Below, in pieces: positions 2,167 through 29,709 of a stretch of 31,424 nucleotides of DNA (positions within the stretch are counted from its first letter, which is position 1; the number at the start of each line of letters is the position of its first letter). Position numbers and translations under genes: made by a program. The notes beneath the pieces are model-generated. The model was not told the origin of the DNA. It made no database searches and saw nothing but the letters and a program-made list of their open reading frames with translations. Source of the DNA: a virus; the IMG/VR virus record IMGVR_UViG_3300000133_000001, positions 1 through 31,424 of that record; one strand, 5' to 3'.

Positions 2167-2399
2167 TTAAAAAAGAATGGCTATTTATGGAAACACCAAA
2201 AGAGAAAGCATACAGCCTACATAAGAAGTTTTACAATGTGGATGGTCAAGACTTTCACAATACAATGAGTAGTAAGATAGCAAAGCAATGTGCTAAAGTA
2301 CATATAAGACTTATACTTGAAAACGAAATACTAAAACCACATAACAAGATAACACTAGAATACTATCAAGAAGTACTAAACGAAATAGAAAAGCTATGA
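2163..2399 (+). CDS. Hypothetical protein (78 aa)
   Basis: ATGA overlaps at both ends indicate translational coupling. No recognisable motif. Confidence 0.6.
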   Translation: MIKKEWLFMETPKEKAYSLHKKFYNVDGQDFHNTMSSKIAKQCAKVHIRLILENEILKPHNKITLEYYQEVLNEIEKL

Positions 2400-3226
2400 A
2401 AGAAAATTTATTAGTTAGCTTTAGCGGTGGAGAAACAAGTGCTTATTTAGCAAAGTGGTTATTAGATAATAAATCAGAAGTTTACAATCTTATTTTTGTT
2501 TTTGCCAATACTGGTGATGAAGAAGAAGAAACTTTGCTCTTTATAGATAAATGCTCAAAAGAATGGAGTATAAATATAGTTTGGGTAGAGGCTGTTGTAC
2601 ATCACAATGAAAGGATTGGAAGCACACACAAAATAGTTAACTTTAAAACCGCATCAAGAAATAGAGAACCTTACAAAGAAGTTATAAAAAAGTATGGCAT
2701 ACCAAACCAGAATTTTCTACATTGTAATAGAGAAATGAAACTCAATCCTATTAAAAGTTATATTAAAAGTTTAGGCTGGAAAAAATATAAAACCGCAATA
2801 GGTATCAGAGTAGATGAATTTGATAGGATGAACAAACATAGAGAAAAACTGGGTTTAATTTATCCTTTTATATCTGATAAACCAACAAGCAAACAAGAAG
2901 TTTCTTATTGGTGGTCAACGCAAAAATTTAGACTGAAACTAAAAAGCTATAATACAAATTGCAAGACTTGCTGGAAAAAATCAGATAAAGTTTTAGCACA
3001 AGTATATAGGGACAATCCAAACTACTTTGATTTTAATAAAGAAATGGAAGATAAATATGGAAAAAATAAATACACATTTTTCAGAAATGGAAGAAGCACA
3101 GAAGAACTAAAAGAAGATTTAAAAAAAATAAACAAAGCACCAAAGGACAAACACGAAGATATAAATTTTCAAACAGATTTATTTTCACAAAGCTGTGACA
3201 TATATTCTATGTGTGGTGATGATTAA
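2396..3226 (+). CDS. PP-loop ATP pyrophosphatase / PAPS-reductase-family protein with a C-terminal 4-Cys cluster
   Basis: N-terminal PP-loop LLVSFSGGETSAYL (SGGxxS). Central ..LHCNREMKLNPIKSYI.. is typical of the PAPS_reduct family. C-terminal CKTCW (CxxC) and SCDIYSMCG (Cx5C) are present, but there is no ECGLH motif of true CysH. Confidence 0.75.
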   Translation: MKENLLVSFSGGETSAYLAKWLLDNKSEVYNLIFVFANTGDEEEETLLFIDKCSKEWSINIVWVEAVVHHNERIGSTHKIVNFKTASRNREPYKEVIKKYGIPNQNFLHCNREMKLNPIKSYIKSLGWKKYKTAIGIRVDEFDRMNKHREKLGLIYPFISDKPTSKQEVSYWWSTQKFRLKLKSYNTNCKTCWKKSDKVLAQVYRDNPNYFDFNKEMEDKYGKNKYTFFRNGRSTEELKEDLKKINKAPKDKHEDINFQTDLFSQSCDIYSMCGDD

Positions 3227-3392: not shown

Positions 3393-3659
3393 ATGGATAA
3401 AAGAAAAAATAACGGTGGTGTAAGGGAAGGTGCTGGCAGACCAAAGAAAGCAGATGAACTAAAACTAATAGAAAAACTTGATAACCTTATAGATAATGAT
3501 GAGGTAATAAAAACACTAGGCAAACAAATACTAAAAGGTGATAGTCGTGCTATGTCGTTGTACTTTGGTTACAGATACGGTAAGCCAAAAGAAAGTGTAG
3601 ACATAACCTCAACAGATGGTTTCAATATTAACTTTAATGATATTATCAAGTTTAAGTGA
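3393..3659 (+). CDS. terS: Terminase small subunit (putative)
   Basis: 88 aa. N-terminal NNGGVREGAGRPKK is the G-x-R-x-GAGRPkk DNA-binding motif common in small terminases. It lies immediately upstream of, and overlaps, terL. Confidence 0.65.
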   Translation: MDKRKNNGGVREGAGRPKKADELKLIEKLDNLIDNDEVIKTLGKQILKGDSRAMSLYFGYRYGKPKESVDITSTDGFNINFNDIIKFK

Positions 3660-4864
3660 TAGAAGTTGATCCAAAGTATAAACCAATCCAAACATCAGAT
3701 GCTAGGTATTATATTGTAACTGGTGGTAGGGGTTCTGGTAAATCGTATTCTATAAACTTACTATTGTTGTTGCTCACTTTTGAAGCTGGGCATACAATCT
3801 TGTTTACTAGGTTTACATTATCATCTGCATACATTTCTATTATACCAGAGTTTATAGACAAGATAGAAACACTTAACTTACAAGATGCTTTTTATATAAC
3901 AAAAGATGAAATACGAAATAAGCTATCTGGTAGCAAGATAATCTTTAAAGGTATCAAGACATCAAGCGGTGACCAAACAGCCAACCTAAAGTCTTTAACT
4001 AATGTTAGCACTTGGGTAATGGATGAAGCAGAAGAACTGCAAGATGAAAACATCTTTGACAAAATAGATTTAAGTGTTAGAAACCTAAACCAAAAGAATA
4101 GGGTAATACTTATTTTAAACCCAGTTACAAAAGAGCATTGGATATACAATAGGTTCTTTGAAGATAAAGGTGTGCAAGCTGGTACAAACACAACCAAAGG
4201 AAATACAACCTACATACACACAACTTATTTAGATAACGTAGAAAACCTATCTAAAAGTTATTTAGAGCAAATAGAAAACATTAAGAAACGCAGACCAGAG
4301 AAATACAAGCACCAAATGCTTGGGGGCTGGTTGGCAAAAGCAGAGGGTGTAATATTCAGTAACTGGCAGATAGGTGAGTTTAAAAAAGTAGGTGTAAGTG
4401 TGTTTGGTCAAGATTATGGTTTTGCATCAGATGAAAATACATTAGTAGAAACTAACATAGATACAAACAACAAGATAATCTATTTAAAGGAGTGCTTTTA
4501 CTTGAAAGGTCTTACCACATCACAAATAGCTGAACTAAACCTTAAACACGCAAAAAACCATCTTATAGTAGGTGATAGTGCTGAACCAAGATTGTTACAC
4601 GAACTGAAAGCAAAAGGTTGCAATGTAGTCAAAGCAATAAAAGGTCAAGGTTCAATTACATACGGCATAGCATTACTACAAGACTATGATCTAGTTGTAG
4701 AAGAAAACAGTATCAACTTAATCAAAGAACTAAACAACTACTCTTGGTTGGAGAAAAAGTCTAAAACACCACAAGACAAATTCAACCACATCATTGATGC
4801 AATCCGTTATAGTGTATCATATCAACTGCAAAACCCAAACAGAGGTAACTACTACATATCTTAA
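3656..4864 (+). CDS. terL: Terminase large subunit (PBSX/XtmB-like)
   Basis: Walker A YYIVTGGRGSGKSYS and Walker B WVMDEAEE. The C-terminal nuclease-type region has conserved Asp residues (VGDSAEP, IIDAIRY). GTG start in a GTGA overlap with terS. Confidence 0.9.
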   Translation: MIEVDPKYKPIQTSDARYYIVTGGRGSGKSYSINLLLLLLTFEAGHTILFTRFTLSSAYISIIPEFIDKIETLNLQDAFYITKDEIRNKLSGSKIIFKGIKTSSGDQTANLKSLTNVSTWVMDEAEELQDENIFDKIDLSVRNLNQKNRVILILNPVTKEHWIYNRFFEDKGVQAGTNTTKGNTTYIHTTYLDNVENLSKSYLEQIENIKKRRPEKYKHQMLGGWLAKAEGVIFSNWQIGEFKKVGVSVFGQDYGFASDENTLVETNIDTNNKIIYLKECFYLKGLTTSQIAELNLKHAKNHLIVGDSAEPRLLHELKAKGCNVVKAIKGQGSITYGIALLQDYDLVVEENSINLIKELNNYSWLEKKSKTPQDKFNHIIDAIRYSVSYQLQNPNRGNYYIS

Positions 4865-5528: not shown

Positions 5529-5559
5529 TATAAAAAACCATTTTAAAAACGTTATATAA
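5529..5559 (+). promoter_or_regulatory. Putative phage late promoter, copy 2 (TATAAA-N15-CGTTATATAA)
   Basis: CGTTATATAA at 5550-5559 ends 2 nt before the ATG at 5562. It lies just downstream of the 5481-5512 terminator. Confidence 0.65.
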
Positions 5560-12380: not shown

Positions 12381-12411
12381 TGCAAAATTAAAAACTAAAC
12401 ACGTTATATAT
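12381..12411 (+). promoter_or_regulatory. Putative phage late promoter, copy 3 (TGCAAA-N15-CGTTATATAT)
   Basis: CGTTATATAT at 12402-12411 ends 2 nt before the ATG at 12414. AAATGCAAAA at 12378-12387 is shared with copy 4 at identical spacing. Confidence 0.65.
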
Positions 12412-13660: not shown

Positions 13661-13691
13661 TGCAAAAAGTAAATTAATAATCGTTATATAA
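13661..13691 (+). promoter_or_regulatory. Putative phage late promoter, copy 4 (TGCAAA-N15-CGTTATATAA)
   Basis: CGTTATATAA at 13682-13691 ends 5 nt before the ATG at 13697. AAATGCAAAA at 13658-13667. Confidence 0.65.
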
Positions 13692-15956: not shown

Positions 15957-16346
15957 ATGATATTATTTAACACAACTGCCACAAATCAATTTACTATAAT
16001 ACCTAGAGATTATGTATCAAATGCATATATGACTATTAGAGATGATAGCACAAATGTAACTGTTGATTATACATTAGTACCTAGAGTTGCTGGTAGTGGT
16101 AATATTGAAATTTCAAATGATACCTACAATGTATATAATGATACCTATTCAAATTTAGTTGAGGGGCATTTTTATGATTTAACTATATATTCAGACATAG
16201 CAAAAACAAATGTAATATATAAGGATAGGATTTTCTGTACTGCACAAAAAGCAGAAATTGATGCAGATAACAATTATTTCTATAAAGTAAATAAAGACCA
16301 ATATACAGAATACGATGGTTTCAATAATGACTATATTGTAATATGA
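15957..16346 (+). CDS. Hypothetical virion-module protein (129 aa)
   Basis: First gene behind late promoter copy 5. ATGA overlap with the portal gene. Confidence 0.65.
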   Translation: MILFNTTATNQFTIIPRDYVSNAYMTIRDDSTNVTVDYTLVPRVAGSGNIEISNDTYNVYNDTYSNLVEGHFYDLTIYSDIAKTNVIYKDRIFCTAQKAEIDADNNYFYKVNKDQYTEYDGFNNDYIVI

Positions 16347-18382
16347 GAAAAAGAAACGAAAAAGGACAATTTAGCAAAACAAAAGTATCAGAGTTTGGCT
16401 TTGTAAATTTAAGTACATACACATCACCAGAGGTAAAAGAAGTTAATGGTGCTGATTGGATTGAATATGGTGCAGATAACAACTATTTTCAATTCCTTAT
16501 CGATAGATATAATGGTTCACCTACAAACAATGCAGCTATAAATGGTATATCACAAGCTATTTATGGTAAAGGTTTAAATGCAACAGATAGCAATAGAAAA
16601 CCAAATGAGTATGCACAGATGATTTCTTTGTTTAGGAAAGATGTTGTACGTAGGGCTTGTTATGATCTTAAACTTATGGGGCAAGCTGCAATACAAGTTA
16701 TCTACTCAAAGGATAGAAGCAAGATTGTTCAACTAGAACATATGCCTATTGAAACATTAAGAGCAGAAAAATGTGATGAAGATGGAAATGTACCAGCTTA
16801 TTACTATTTTAATGATTGGGCTAACATAAAAAAGACTGATGAACCATTAAGAATACCAGCTTTTGGTATGTCTAATGAAGAAATTGAGATATACTACATA
16901 AAACCTTATAAGAGTGGTTTCTATTACTACTCACCCGTAGACTATCAAGGAGGCTTGCAGTACGCAGAACTCGAAGAAGAGGTATCAAACTACCACCTCA
17001 ACAACATTATGAATGGTTTATCGCCATCGATGTTAATTAACTTTAACAACGGTACTCCTAACCAACAAGAAAGACAATTAATAGAAACGAAAATAGCATC
17101 TAAATTTTCGGGAACCAGCAATGCGGGCAAGTTCATACTAGCTTTTAATGACAATAAAGAAAGCCAAGCAGAAATAACACCAGTACAATTAAGTGATGCT
17201 CATAATCAGTATCAATTTTTGTCAGAAGAAAGCACGTCCAAAATCCAAATTGCCCATAGGGTGGTCTCACCTTTTTTATTAGGTATACAAACAAAAAACG
17301 GTTTTTCGTCAAATGCAGATGAAATAAAGACTGCATCTTTGTTAATGGATAACACCGTTATAAGACCATTTCAAGAACTTTTAATTGATAGCTTTGATAA
17401 TATACTAGCTTACAACGAAATCAGCTTAAACCTATACTTTACGACCTTACAGCCACTAGAATTTACAGAGGTAGACCAATCACTTCAAGACAATGAAACT
17501 ATTGAAGAAGAAACTGGTGTTGAAATGGCAGTTAATCTAAAAAAGATAGATGGCAAAGATGTATACAAAACCAAAGAAGAAGCTGAAAAAGTAGCAGATG
17601 AAATGGGTTGTGGTGGATCACACGAACACGAAATAGAGGGTGTTGTTTACTATATGCCTTGTGTATCACACGAAGAACTTAAAGCACCTTGTTGGGATGG
17701 ATATGAGCAAATAGGCACAAAAACAAAAGATGGCAAAGAAGTACCAAATTGTGTACCATTAAAACAAGAACTAACTGATGAAATGGCAACAGCTATTTTA
17801 GAAAACTTAAAGTATGAAACCATAACTGATGAATATGAATTGGTTGAAACTAGAGAGTATTCAGAAGAAAATAAAAGCACAGAAGATTGGGCAAAGTCAC
17901 TTATAAAAAGAAAACTATCAAGAATAAGAAAGTTTGCAGATTTTATAACATCAAAGCCTAATGAAGAAAGCAAGTTAGATAAATCATTTTACAAGATTAG
18001 ATACACATACCAACAAAGGGTTTCACCATCATCTACCAAAACTGGTAAAAGCAGAGATTTTTGCAAAACAATGATGGGCAGAACTAGTAAGGGTGTTGTG
18101 TATAGAAAAGAAGATATAGACAATGCATCTTTTTCTGGTGTGAATAATAACTTTGGTCATAAAGGACAAAATTATTCGCTTTTCCGCTTCAAGGGCGGTA
18201 TATACTGTGGACATTACTGGAGGGAAGAATTGTATAGAATGAAAAGTGAAACTGAAAAATACATATCAAGAGGTAAAGAAGTTAAATCAATACCAAACAA
18301 ATTTCAACCAAAAGGAACACAATACAAAGAAGCTGGTGAAGCACCAACTACTTGGACAGATAGAGGTGCATACCCAAACTAG
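16343..18382 (+). CDS. Portal protein with a C-terminal Cys-rich and MuF-like extension (679 aa)
   Basis: The first ~375 aa look portal-like (..GADWIEYGADNNYFQFLIDRYNGSPTNNAAINGISQAIYGKGL.. and ..SNAGKFILAF..PVQL..). The C-terminal ~300 aa carry GCGGSHEHEIEGVVYYMPCVSHEELKAPCWDGYEQIGTKTKDGKEVPNCVP and then ..KSRDFCKTMMG..VVYRKEDI..FRFKGGIYCGHYW.., which resembles head-morphogenesis (SPP1 gp7/Mu F) domains. Confidence 0.65.
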   Translation: MRKRNEKGQFSKTKVSEFGFVNLSTYTSPEVKEVNGADWIEYGADNNYFQFLIDRYNGSPTNNAAINGISQAIYGKGLNATDSNRKPNEYAQMISLFRKDVVRRACYDLKLMGQAAIQVIYSKDRSKIVQLEHMPIETLRAEKCDEDGNVPAYYYFNDWANIKKTDEPLRIPAFGMSNEEIEIYYIKPYKSGFYYYSPVDYQGGLQYAELEEEVSNYHLNNIMNGLSPSMLINFNNGTPNQQERQLIETKIASKFSGTSNAGKFILAFNDNKESQAEITPVQLSDAHNQYQFLSEESTSKIQIAHRVVSPFLLGIQTKNGFSSNADEIKTASLLMDNTVIRPFQELLIDSFDNILAYNEISLNLYFTTLQPLEFTEVDQSLQDNETIEEETGVEMAVNLKKIDGKDVYKTKEEAEKVADEMGCGGSHEHEIEGVVYYMPCVSHEELKAPCWDGYEQIGTKTKDGKEVPNCVPLKQELTDEMATAILENLKYETITDEYELVETREYSEENKSTEDWAKSLIKRKLSRIRKFADFITSKPNEESKLDKSFYKIRYTYQQRVSPSSTKTGKSRDFCKTMMGRTSKGVVYRKEDIDNASFSGVNNNFGHKGQNYSLFRFKGGIYCGHYWREELYRMKSETEKYISRGKEVKSIPNKFQPKGTQYKEAGEAPTTWTDRGAYPN

Positions 18383-25305: not shown

Positions 25306-25690
25306 ACCAAGCAGAAGCAAAATAGTAAAAAAACTAGATGCTATATTTAGCCAGTACATAAGGTTAAAGGATGCAGATCATAATGGTGATGTAAAGTGCT
25401 TTACTTGTGGTAAGGTATCACACTTTAAAAAAGGTATGCAATGTGGTCACTTTCAATCAAGAAAACACTATGCAACCAGATGGCTGGAAAAAAACGTAGC
25501 GGTGCAGTGTGTTGGTTGTAATATGTTTAAAGCCGGTGAACAATTCTTGTTTGGTAAGTACTTGGATCAAAAGTATGGTGATGGTACTGCTGAAGAATTA
25601 TATATAAAATCAAAAGAAACTGTAAAGTATTCTAATGATGAACTACAAGATATGATAAAACACTATAAAGATTTGGTAGACAGTATGTAA
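25295..25690 (+). CDS. ninG: NinG/Rap-family recombination endonuclease-like protein
   Basis: KKLDAIFSQYIRLKDADHNGDVKCFTCGK..MQCGHFQSRKHYATRWLEKNVAVQCVGCNMFKAGEQ matches the lambda NinG pattern (lD.lfS.yIRlr.....G...C.tCg.....l.aGHf.sR.....Rf.e.Nv..QC..CN). Confidence 0.8.
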   Translation: MPSKPSRSKIVKKLDAIFSQYIRLKDADHNGDVKCFTCGKVSHFKKGMQCGHFQSRKHYATRWLEKNVAVQCVGCNMFKAGEQFLFGKYLDQKYGDGTAEELYIKSKETVKYSNDELQDMIKHYKDLVDSM

Positions 25691-25734
25691 TTCGTTACAT
25701 TTGACTATTCTGTTTTGTTAAGGGAAAGGGGTTT

Positions 25735-25759
25735 GGCTTTATGTCAAGCCTTTTTTTTT
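25735..25759 (+). terminator. Rho-independent terminator (short stem, T9)
   Basis: ggctt (25735-25739) pairs with aagcc (25746-25750). The loop is tatgtc, followed by T9 at 25751-25759. Confidence 0.55.
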
Positions 25760-25768
25760 GCTTTATGG

Positions 25769-25799
25769 TTTGAGTTATTAACAATTTTGTTTATATTTG
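25769..25799 (+). promoter_or_regulatory. Canonical Bacteroidota-type promoter TTTG-N19-TATATTTG
   Basis: TTTG at 25769-25772, an exact 19-nt spacer, then TATATTTG at 25792-25799 (a perfect TAnnTTTG). The ATG at 25826 is 27 nt downstream, and the element sits directly after a terminator. Confidence 0.7.
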
Positions 25800-27044: not shown

Positions 27045-27079
27045 AAAGGGTGTAGGTTTTTAACTTGCACCTTTTTTTT
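27045..27079 (+). terminator. Rho-independent terminator
   Basis: aaagggtgtagg (27045-27056) pairs with cttgcacctttt (27064-27075), giving 12 bp with three G-U pairs. The loop is tttttaa and the T-run extends to 27079. Confidence 0.65.
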
Positions 27080-27092
27080 ATACATTTAACAA

Positions 27093-27929
27093 ATGACAGA
27101 AAAAGAAACAGAACAGAATATGTTAATGGAATTTATTGCAGATACTTGCAAGATAGACATTAACGAAAAATTAGAATATCCACCAGTATGTTTAAGCTAT
27201 GGTGAAAAGGTTATACAATCAGATAAAGGTGATAGTATCATACCAATCGCTCTTGGGACATTTGGCAATCTTTCAGTAATTACTGCACCACCAAAGACAA
27301 GAAAAAGTTTTTTTTGCTCTTTACTTGCAAGTGCTTATTTAAGTGGTTCTAATATTTATGGTGGAAAAATAAAAGGGCATAGAGGTAATGGAGATTTAAT
27401 TTATATAGATACAGAACAAGGAAGCTGGCACGCATCTAAAGTATTTAAACGTCCATTAGATATGGATAGCAACATACCTAAAGACAAATATCACACGTTT
27501 GCATTGCGTACAATAGCTTTTAAGGAACGTTTAGAGTTTATTGAATACTATTTAAAGGAACACATAAAAGAACCATCTCTGCTTATTATAGATGGTGTAG
27601 CAGATTTATGTGCAGATGTAAACAACATAGAGAAAAGTAATGAATTAGTAAGTGCATTAATGAGAATAAGCCAACAGCAAAACGTACATATAATAAATGT
27701 GATACATCAAAACTTTGGTAGTGCTAAACTCGGAACTGGGCATTTAGGTTCTGCATTAGAAAAGAAAGCAGAAACAGTAATAAGTTTGGAAGCAAACACA
27801 GTAAACAAAGATTGGACAACGGTTAAGTGTGGTAGAAGTAGGGGTTACTCTTTTGAAACATTTAGCTTTGAAGTAAACGAAAAAGGATTGCCAACAATAG
27901 TAAATGATTTATATGATCCGTTAAAATGA
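27093..27929 (+). CDS. RecA-fold ATPase (AAA_25 / RepA / DnaB-C-terminal-like), putative replicative helicase
   Basis: Walker A-like ITAPPKTRKSFF, then LIYIDTEQGS, Walker B LLIIDGVADL, and ..VHIINVIHQN.., which is typical of RepA/AAA_25 proteins. Confidence 0.6.
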   Translation: MTEKETEQNMLMEFIADTCKIDINEKLEYPPVCLSYGEKVIQSDKGDSIIPIALGTFGNLSVITAPPKTRKSFFCSLLASAYLSGSNIYGGKIKGHRGNGDLIYIDTEQGSWHASKVFKRPLDMDSNIPKDKYHTFALRTIAFKERLEFIEYYLKEHIKEPSLLIIDGVADLCADVNNIEKSNELVSALMRISQQQNVHIINVIHQNFGSAKLGTGHLGSALEKKAETVISLEANTVNKDWTTVKCGRSRGYSFETFSFEVNEKGLPTIVNDLYDPLK

Positions 27930-27930
27930 T

Positions 27931-28407
27931 ATGGTACAAAAAACAATGATTATAGTTGCTGCAAAGCATAAAGAGTGGGTAGAAATAGTTTTATCTTTTG
28001 GGTGCAAACAAGAAACTGCTGAAGATATTGTACAAGAAATGTATTACAAGATACAACTGAAACTTGAAAAGGGTTTAGATATAATGTACAATGAAGAAGA
28101 AATAAACTACTACTATATTTTTAAGACTTTAAGAACATTGTTTTACGATTTAAAAAGAAAAGGTAAAAACATCACAATGGTTTCTATGGATGACATACAC
28201 TTAACCACATCAGATGTAAACTACCAAGAACCATATGATAAAATACAAGAAGAACTATCAAAGATGTTTTGGTATGATAGAAAAGTATTTGAAATAATAA
28301 ATGATGGTGAAAGCATTGCAGAATTTTCTAGGAAAAGTTTAATACATTACTATTCACTTTACAACACATACAACAAAGTAAAAAGCAAACTAAAAAAACT
28401 ATTATGA
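27931..28407 (+). CDS. Sigma-70-family (ECF-like) sigma factor or late transcription regulator
   Basis: Region-2-like ..ETAEDIVQEMYYKIQLKL..YYYIFKTLRTLFYDLKRKGK (compare AeDlvQe.f.kl...wl..ia.N...D..Rk). Region-4-like HTH ..WYDRKVFEIINDGESIAEFSRKSLIHYYSLYNTYNKVKSKLKKLL. At 158 aa the size fits a two-domain sigma factor. Confidence 0.6.
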   Translation: MVQKTMIIVAAKHKEWVEIVLSFGCKQETAEDIVQEMYYKIQLKLEKGLDIMYNEEEINYYYIFKTLRTLFYDLKRKGKNITMVSMDDIHLTTSDVNYQEPYDKIQEELSKMFWYDRKVFEIINDGESIAEFSRKSLIHYYSLYNTYNKVKSKLKKLL

Positions 28408-28922
28408 TTTTAAAAATCGATAATGATTTAAAAATTAAATGTTGGAAATATTTGGCAGAAAATAATCTGGGAAATAGACATTCTGCGAATGGAAATAAAG
28501 AACAACAGTTTGTAGGTTTAATTGGTGAAATTATAACAAAGAAATATTTTGGTATAGAACATAAATGGTTAAAAGGTTTTGATGGTGGTTATGATTTTAT
28601 TTATAACAATAAAAAAATAGATGTTAAAACTATGGGAAGAAATGTAACACCTAAAGATTTTTATGTAAATAATTTTATTTCATTTCAAAAAGATTTTGAT
28701 TGTGATTATTACATATTCACATCATTAAATAAAAAAACTAATGAGTTATTTATTTGCGGATATTTATCTAAAACAGAATTATTAGATAAAGCAATATTAT
28801 ATAAAAAAGGTGCGATAAGACATAGAGAAAACGGAACTACCTTTAAAATGAAAGCAGATACATTTGAAATTAAAAATAGCTTACTTAATCAAATAAAAAA
28901 TTTAAAATATGAAACTAGGTAA
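28404..28922 (+). CDS. PD-(D/E)xK nuclease-like protein (172 aa)
   Basis: ..VGLIGEIITKKYFG..GYDFIYNNKKIDVKTMG.. gives an E ... D ... (D)xK arrangement typical of the restriction-endonuclease fold. Confidence 0.45.
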   Translation: MILKIDNDLKIKCWKYLAENNLGNRHSANGNKEQQFVGLIGEIITKKYFGIEHKWLKGFDGGYDFIYNNKKIDVKTMGRNVTPKDFYVNNFISFQKDFDCDYYIFTSLNKKTNELFICGYLSKTELLDKAILYKKGAIRHRENGTTFKMKADTFEIKNSLLNQIKNLKYETR

Positions 28923-29672: not shown

Positions 29673-29709
29673 CACAATTTTGTTAATAACTCAATTATAG
29701 TTATATTGC
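29673..29709 (+). promoter_or_regulatory. Host-type promoter TTTG-N19-TATATTGC (near-identical copy of 4873..4909)
   Basis: TTTG at 29679-29682, a 19-nt spacer, then TATATTGC at 29702-29709. The ATG at 29730 is downstream. The 19-mer is identical to 4873-4891. Confidence 0.6.

Follow-up and report, generated by a model that had tools for sequence, protein, structure and literature searches.

A phage-encoded ECF-type sigma factor as the probable reader of five nearly identical late promoters in a marine phage

Which specificity factor switches on the late genes of a tailed phage in whose DNA no RNA polymerase gene is found, and does the phage itself provide it? The question is raised by a small gene at 27931-28407 (+ strand) of the viral DNA analysed here (the window, 31,424 nucleotides), for which a first-pass annotation had suggested an ECF-like sigma factor that would read a short box repeated in front of the structural operons. 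The window, with 31.9% G+C, corresponds to a tailed-phage genome where every recognisable gene lies on the + strand, and no tRNA gene, Rfam family or RNA polymerase gene was found in it. It is probably not quite a full genome, and another regulator could be missed for that reason. From left to right we find genes for a DNA methyltransferase (417 aa, 913-2166) and a PAPS-reductase-like protein (276 aa, 2396-3226), followed by a packaging segment (3393-4864) with an 88-aa gene at 3393 in the small-terminase position and TerL at 3656. The structural genes include tape-measure-like, head-protease-like and capsid-like genes, the portal (16343-18382) and a 1396-aa tail protein, whereas lysis is represented by an endolysin (23950) and a holin (24552). 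An early/replication block encodes NinG, an SSB-like protein, an AAA_25 ATPase, the sigma candidate and a 5'-3' exonuclease. The segment 913-3226, which ends shortly before the first late promoter, has the aspect of a variable cargo slot, with a different gene of the DNA_methylase type at the same position in one relative (L001).

The only cultured relatives that we found are the Nonlabens (Persicivirga) phages P12024S and P12024L, siphophages of a marine flavobacterium, with a portal 36% identical to that of the window. A single-protein scan of GTDB contigs revealed close homologues of the sigma candidate on three MAG contigs only (L204, L205 and L206, of 13-29 kb; 81%, 74% and 47% identical), binned as Wocania, Saprospiraceae and Flavobacteriales, all of them Bacteroidota, and the three contigs probably come from phages that were binned together with their Bacteroidota hosts. 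Together, the portal relatives, the Bacteroidota bins, the Bacteroidota ECF models matched by the protein family and the Bacteroidota-type early promoters described below indicate that the host is likely a flavobacterium.

The sigma candidate is an ATG-to-TGA ORF of 158 aa, and the region-2-like and region-4-like peptide blocks quoted by the first-pass annotation are all present, residue by residue, in its translation. Its ATG lies 1 nt past the stop of the AAA_25-type ATPase gene (27093-27929) and its stop overlaps the ATG of the next gene (ATGA, 28404-28407), which places it within a tightly packed operon of the + strand. The gene that follows (28404-28922, 172 aa) is translationally coupled to it and syntenic in close relatives, where it encodes 132-134 aa. 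Co-transcription with an anti-sigma factor is typical of group-4 sigma factors, albeit not obligatory. The product of this coupled gene was considered for such a role and dropped, as its matches are only weak ones to DUF6998 (E 0.046) and to phrog_28936, a PHROG of unknown function, and the Pfam and PHROG searches recognised no anti-sigma signature in the genes adjoining the sigma gene. No autoregulatory box was found upstream of the sigma gene either.

Taken as a single sequence, the protein is hardly recognisable. It gives no Pfam sigma match and no phmmer match in the PDB; megablast and tblastn searches against 50,697 phage records found nothing, tblastn with a second family member (P0236) was equally negative, and in annotated phage records no relative of the sigma factor occurs outside the Nonlabens phages. 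Ten of its 12 NCBIfam matches are sigma factors, sub-threshold and collinear (region 2 N-terminal, region 4 C-terminal), and its sole PHROG match is phrog_31712, labelled 'unknown function'. No curated Pfam or NCBIfam cut-off is passed (the best NCBIfam match scores 27 bits against a cut-off of 171), and its assignment is therefore based on family-level profiles and on the fold.

The family is a large one: clustering at 90% identity yields 1292 clusters, and 554 representatives are left when the level is lowered to 50%, mostly from marine/Tara metagenomes, some of them labelled 'sigma24 family' by JGI. An alignment of 59 diverse full-length members (A1), 28-51% identical to the query, reveals a sigma2 pattern (AEDIVQEMYLK ... 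Y.TLRN...D..R), with a nearly invariant region 2.2-like DIVQEMY block, and, after a variable linker, a sigma4 pattern (WYD.K.F...SIR.LS..T.IS..SI.NT.K..K..I). The profile built from this alignment finds in the PDB the sigma2 domain of Streptomyces coelicolor SigR (1h3l, E 1.8e-4) and Mycobacterium tuberculosis SigL over residues 6-154 (E 0.006), as well as SigH and SigE. When the 59 relatives are scanned individually, Sigma70_r2 (PF04542) is matched by 21 and Sigma70_r4_2 (PF08281) by 12, whereas the ECF model TIGR02937 is matched by 53 (best E 2.3e-16), the GFO_1088/PG0214 ECF family by 46 and the Bacteroidetes model Sig70_bacteroi1 by 39. The lack of any sigma-70-family signal in a Sigma70_r2/r4 profile search, which the first-pass annotation had named as the outcome that would speak against a sigma factor, is thus not what was found: at the family level, the sigma-70/ECF signal is clear. 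RinA/ArpU had been listed for the same search, and families of the RinA/ArpU/LtrC type are absent from the top 25 Pfam families of the 59 members.

The AlphaFold2 model built with this alignment (mean pLDDT 95.4) has two sets of four helices, one on each side of a 19-residue linker that is modelled with lower confidence. Residues 1-79 (nt 27931-28167) form sigma2 and residues 99-158 (nt 28225-28404) form sigma4, residues 80-98 being the linker, and there is no region 1.1 and no sigma3 in the 158 aa. A long loop between helices 3 and 4 of sigma2 (residues ~47-59) is specific to the family. The best ~27 Foldseek matches in the PDB are all ECF sigma factors (SigE, SigL, SigH, RpoE, AlgU, SigW, SigK, BldN), and the model helices 99-157 match the sigma4 domain of these proteins; the TM-scores of just 0.35-0.40 are those expected for two domains joined by a flexible linker. 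Altogether, the family profiles, the PDB matches and Foldseek bear out the ECF-like assignment, and we propose with high confidence, on the basis of profiles and model, that the protein belongs to the sigma-70 family with a group-4 (ECF-type) architecture. Its sequence makes it a divergent offshoot of the Bacteroidota ECF sigma factors.

A protein with the fold of a sigma factor could nevertheless act as a DNA-binding activator, or serve as a decoy by titrating either the core polymerase or an anti-sigma factor of the host, without initiating transcription itself. The scores below every curated cut-off would fit such a role, and some phage late activators are indeed sigma-like (PMC3753634). 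We regard it as very unlikely, however, since sigma2 and sigma4 are both complete, the DIVQEMY block is hardly ever changed, no RinA/ArpU-type match appears in the 59 members and the promoters that look cognate, as described next, have both a -35 and a -10 element.

The box itself, CGTTATATAA, occurs in four exact copies (3360, 5550, 13682 and 15944) where shuffled sequences give 0.07, and a fifth site at 12402, CGTTATATAT, departs from it in the last base alone. All five lie on the + strand, in intergenic positions and with AAA exactly 15 nt upstream of CGT. In the whole window, the + strand has five copies of AAA-N15-CGTTA, confined to the structural module, and the - strand has a single one. 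Every late module is headed by one of these candidate promoters. For packaging, P-L1 (3339..3369, +; aataaa-N15-CGTTATATAA) precedes ATG 3393 of the 88-aa gene and then TerL at 3656. The tail/structural module is headed by P-L2 (5529..5559, +; tataaa-N15-CGTTATATAA), with ATG 5562 at an offset of 12 nt from the C of CGT. Two serve the head genes: P-L3 (12381..12411, +; tgcaaa-N15-CGTTATATAT; ATG 12414, offset 12) in front of the head-maturation-protease-like gene, and P-L4 (13661..13691, +; tgcaaa-N15-CGTTATATAA; ATG 13697, offset 15) in front of the scaffold-like and capsid-like genes. Finally, P-L5 (15923..15953, +; tacaaa-N15-CGTTATATAA; ATG 15957, offset 13) precedes the block of portal, tail, endolysin and holin genes. 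Terminator-like hairpins directly 5' of P-L2 (5480-5509) and of P-L5 (15887-15912) leave no room for any other promoter at 5550 and 15944.

The promoters of ECF sigma factors generally combine an AAC -35 with a CGT -10 element (PMC5758882), and a CGT -10 box is also found in flavobacterial ECF promoters (PMC9723704). In the window, the invariant CGTTAT and the fixed spacing are accompanied by an A-rich -35 element, [T/A]A[C/T]AAA, without the canonical AAC. The boxes that had been tied to the sigma factor are real, as judged by their excess over shuffles, and look like ECF-type late promoters.

A wider view was offered by 83 related loci that, together with the window, comprise 857 kb. The core AAA-N15-CGTTAT is found 74 times on the strand of the sigma gene versus 5 on the other, and 23 of the 26 loci that extend 8 kb or more downstream from the sigma gene carry it, these being related phages and not phylogenetically independent cases. 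The tail of the box drifts in the relatives (CGTTATAATA, -ATCA, -ACTA, -GTTA), CGTTAT, AAA and their spacing are kept, and the sequence of the 15-nt spacer is not conserved. About 14 CGTTATA matches in the relatives were discounted as coding coincidences, corresponding either to S-L-Y-N in the sigma gene or to Y-T-G-I-R-Y in a small downstream ORF. In several relatives, an exact box forms part of the 3'-terminal coding sequence of the sigma gene (L010:3346, L046:4357, L058:2598, L059:3834, L060:2050, L064:1292, L067:4855 and L068:1708), where TCG-TTA-TAT-AAT provides the codons for S-L-Y-N; lacking the upstream AAA, these boxes look like coincidences of coding, and the sigma gene of the window uses different codons at that position. 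Of 80 viral contigs picked by the box pattern, only nine have the sigma gene within the ~7 kb covered to either side of a box, the gene usually lying further off.

Measured from the C of CGT to the ATG, an offset of 12 is the modal one (25 of 62 scorable sites) and 39 of the 62 sites fall between 10 and 16, with a second class of 33-42 in front of the small ORF preceding the terminase. Such a fixed distance to the AUG, in a phylum that makes no use of Shine-Dalgarno sequences (PMC9723704), could also be that of an element acting at the RNA level, either a ribosome-recruitment site or a translational operator, unrelated to the sigma factor. This we consider highly improbable. The motif has a bipartite layout, where an unconserved 15-nt spacer follows a conserved AAA, it fits the -35/-10 geometry of ECF promoters (PMC6411747), it recurs with the ATG 33-42 nt away, and it stands immediately behind terminators that leave no space for a promoter other than the box.

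The phage P12024S offers an independent view of the same arrangement. Its gp33 (159 aa, L084:20595-21074), deposited as 'hypothetical protein, containing Sigma-70 region 2', is only 24% identical to the sigma factor of the window, and the alignment of both profiles (hhalign probability 98.7%, E 3.5e-16) places it in the same family as a distant homologue, of nearly the same size and encoded at a similar genome position near the terminase. The exact box of the window is absent from P12024S. In its place, seven intergenic sites follow the pattern aaaAC-N17-CGTTAATA(T/A)A-NN-ATG. They precede positions 179, 3031, 5412, 21280, 23961, 25201 and 26802 (L084) and lie upstream of gp01, gp05, gp08, gp35, gp41, gp44 and gp45, and six of the seven show the offset of 12 from C to ATG. 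Compared with the window, these promoters have a canonical AAC -35, a spacer 1 nt shorter and a tail AATA instead of TATA. In the promoter of M. tuberculosis sigmaH, the -35 GGAAYA spans -34..-29 and the -10 element is formed by G-11, T-10 and T-9 (PMC6411747); placed on this frame, the AAC of P12024S occupies -32..-30, its canonical position.

Both lineages thus share a sigma factor of one family and CGTTA-type sites immediately 5' of intergenic gene starts, a co-occurrence that we take as the strongest in-silico support for a pairing of sigma factor and box, which we infer from these comparisons of sequences. On the other hand, the new specificity claimed by the first-pass annotation was overstated, since the -10 element is the classical CGT(T) of ECF promoters, the -35 is an A-rich variant, and the canonical AAC in P12024S makes of it a variation on the ECF theme. 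We found no published analysis of the promoters or motif of P12024S, nor of this sigma family and its promoters.

It is at this point that a host factor has to be weighed, as an ECF (or other) sigma factor of the host could read the boxes, leaving the phage protein with a regulon elsewhere, either in host genes or in unrecognised middle promoters. Flavobacteria have ~7 ECF sigma factors and a class of CGT-type ECF promoters (PMC9723704), and the models closest to the phage protein are Bacteroidota ECF families, so that host paralogues may share its specificity. Against this, the sigma gene and the box are kept together across phages whose sigma factors are only 24-50% identical, near-identical copies of high consensus are typical of the promoters of phage sigma factors (PMC4331800), and it would be a fragile strategy to make all late genes rely on a stress-induced host factor gated by an anti-sigma. 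Reading of the boxes by a host ECF factor is therefore unlikely in our opinion, and the phage's own sigma factor is preferred as their reader.

The early region, where the sigma gene lies, has promoters of a different type. Pairs of -35/-10 elements of the E. coli type are no more frequent than in shuffled sequences, neither among the early genes nor among the late ones, and such matches were consequently dropped as a criterion. The consensus of flavobacterial sigmaA is characterized by a -7 box, TAnnTTTG (PMC9723704), and promoters of this kind are found in the early region. One of them (25769..25799, +; TTTG-N19-TATATTTG) is followed, after 27 nt, by the ORF that opens the early/replication block (ATG 25826), a second one (25672..25703, +; TTTG-N20-TACATTTG), which is conserved, is found ~2.26 kb upstream of the sigma gene, and a variant (29679..29708, +; TTTG-N19-TATATTG) occurs downstream of the sigma operon. 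The promoters at 25769 and 29679 had been described as host-type, which holds in the sense that they are of the Bacteroidota sigmaA type, and not of the TTGACA/TATAAT type. Among the relatives, the pattern favours the sigma strand by 60:20, with 19 sites located 2-3 kb upstream of the sigma gene and 16 sites 1-2 kb downstream. The existence of two distinct promoter classes divides the genome into an early and a late part.

Other features of the early region deserve a mention. The promoter at 25672 overlaps the 3' end of the NinG ORF and is followed by a conserved segment of ~55 nt (ttctgtt..gtt..aaagggg) ending in a strong terminator-like hairpin with a T9 run (25721..25759, +), with the second early promoter directly after it. 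This segment (25672-25768; MFE of the hairpin with T9 -18.8 kcal/mol, z -3.6) has no Rfam match and may represent a small phage RNA or an attenuator. Another terminator-like hairpin with a T-run (27045..27075, +) follows the SSB-like gene, ~18 nt before the ATPase-sigma operon, which it separates from the best early promoter (25769). No recognisable promoter was found between this hairpin and the operon, and the hairpin may delay or attenuate the expression of the sigma factor.

The early promoters also bear on whether the host primary sigma factor could read the late boxes, taking their TATATAA part as an ordinary -10. The boxes are TATA-rich, and an E. coli-type match (TTGAAA-16-AATAAT) ends at 13681, abutting the box at 13682. 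Matches of this type, however, are no commoner than in shuffles, the likely host sigma reads TAnnTTTG, which is absent from the boxes (PMC9723704), and a -10 at TATATA or TATAAN would, in the modal class, move the start into the ORF by 3-5 nt. Moreover, the invariant part of the box is CGTTAT, whereas the TATAA tail varies in the relatives. Of all the readings considered here, we deem this one the most improbable.

The model that we regard as probable is then a cascade in which the host sigmaA would transcribe the early region, including the sigma gene, and the phage sigma factor would subsequently take the host core polymerase to the five late promoters. Infection would start with host RNA polymerase and Bacteroidota sigmaA at the TTTG-N19-TAnnTTTG promoters of the replication region, where the sigma gene lies. 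Its product is predicted to bind the host core polymerase, with sigma4 reading the A-rich -35 ([T/A]A[C/T]AAA) and sigma2 reading and melting the -10 CGTTAT. The five near-consensus promoters would be activated in this way, and with them the packaging, tail, head and portal-to-lysis operons. The succession from host sigmaA to phage sigma is well supported in silico.

With the C of CGT at about -12, the predicted transcription start falls on the start codon or a few nucleotides away from it. On the frame of sigmaH, the CGTT of the phage has its C at -12 and the nucleotide at offset 12 becomes +1. A C at -12 combined with a modal ATG offset of 12 predicts a start on the ATG and, in consequence, leaderless late mRNAs. 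By this geometry, most late operons would have a first gene that is translated from an mRNA with little or no leader. Among the mRNAs of Flavobacterium psychrophilum, just 5.5% are leaderless (PMC9723704). A broader proposal, which we put forward as a tentative one with somewhat less than even chances, is that marine siphophages of Bacteroidota, an abundant lineage with hardly any cultured member, run their whole late programme from an ECF-type sigma factor of their own, through promoters fused to start codons and with leaderless first genes in most late operons, a coupling shared with P12024S.

How does this compare with known systems? The sigma factors of coliphage phiEco32 (gp36) and of phage 7-11 direct the host core RNA polymerase to middle/late promoters (PMC12276001, PMC8948821, PMC4331800). 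As in the window, gp36 is a small phage sigma of two domains, with a sigma2-like N-terminal and a sigma4-like C-terminal domain, and a few highly conserved bipartite promoters precede the late clusters, whereas early genes depend on the host primary sigma. The host phylum and the promoter sequence differ, and there is no detectable sequence relation between both proteins, the gp36 complex (9m7y_F) ranking 30 in the Foldseek search (E 0.079). Moreover, the helices of gp36 are atypical and its activity requires gp79, the protein that displaces sigma70, and no gp79-like partner was identified in the window. By analogy, we propose that the sigma factor of the window may work like gp36 from outside the gp36 family.

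The cellular ECF sigma factors (SigH, SigL and SigE of M. tuberculosis, SigW of Bacillus subtilis, GFO_1088/PG0214, Sig70_bacteroi1) share with the phage protein the fold, the domains and the size, and their promoters have, like the boxes, a CGT(T) -10, an A-rich or AAC -35 and a rigid spacer (PMC6411747, PMC5758882). Unlike them, the protein studied here is phage-borne, with no anti-sigma-like neighbour, no autoregulatory box and the long loop at 47-59. The classical cases of T4 gp55 and of SPO1 gp28/gp34 are late/middle sigma factors that replace the host sigma (PMC2988020, PMC9429907). Both domains and both promoter elements are present in the system of the window, in contrast to T4 gp55. 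The T4 protein is not known to have a sigma4 domain for reading the -35, and depends on the sliding clamp.

A late sigma factor encoded by the phage is, therefore, an established strategy. In the window, which represents an abundant lineage of marine phages, it most likely takes the form of an ECF-type protein that brings the polymerase of the host to five late promoters of nearly identical sequence. Its main points of interest are how abundant the lineage is, a clean two-tier promoter code and the leaderless prediction. For this very abundant and essentially uncultured phage group, the analysis offers a concrete and testable programme, host sigmaA first and then the phage ECF sigma, and a defined, putative sigma/promoter pair to which P12024S and Nonlabens provide a direct experimental route. 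It also suggests that both phrog_31712 and gp33 of P12024S could be annotated as ECF-type sigma factors. If the leaderless prediction is true, these phages would have a translation strategy of their own in the Bacteroidota, a phylum without Shine-Dalgarno-based initiation, and the pair would constitute a compact orthogonal module for gene expression in a group where genetic tools are scarce.
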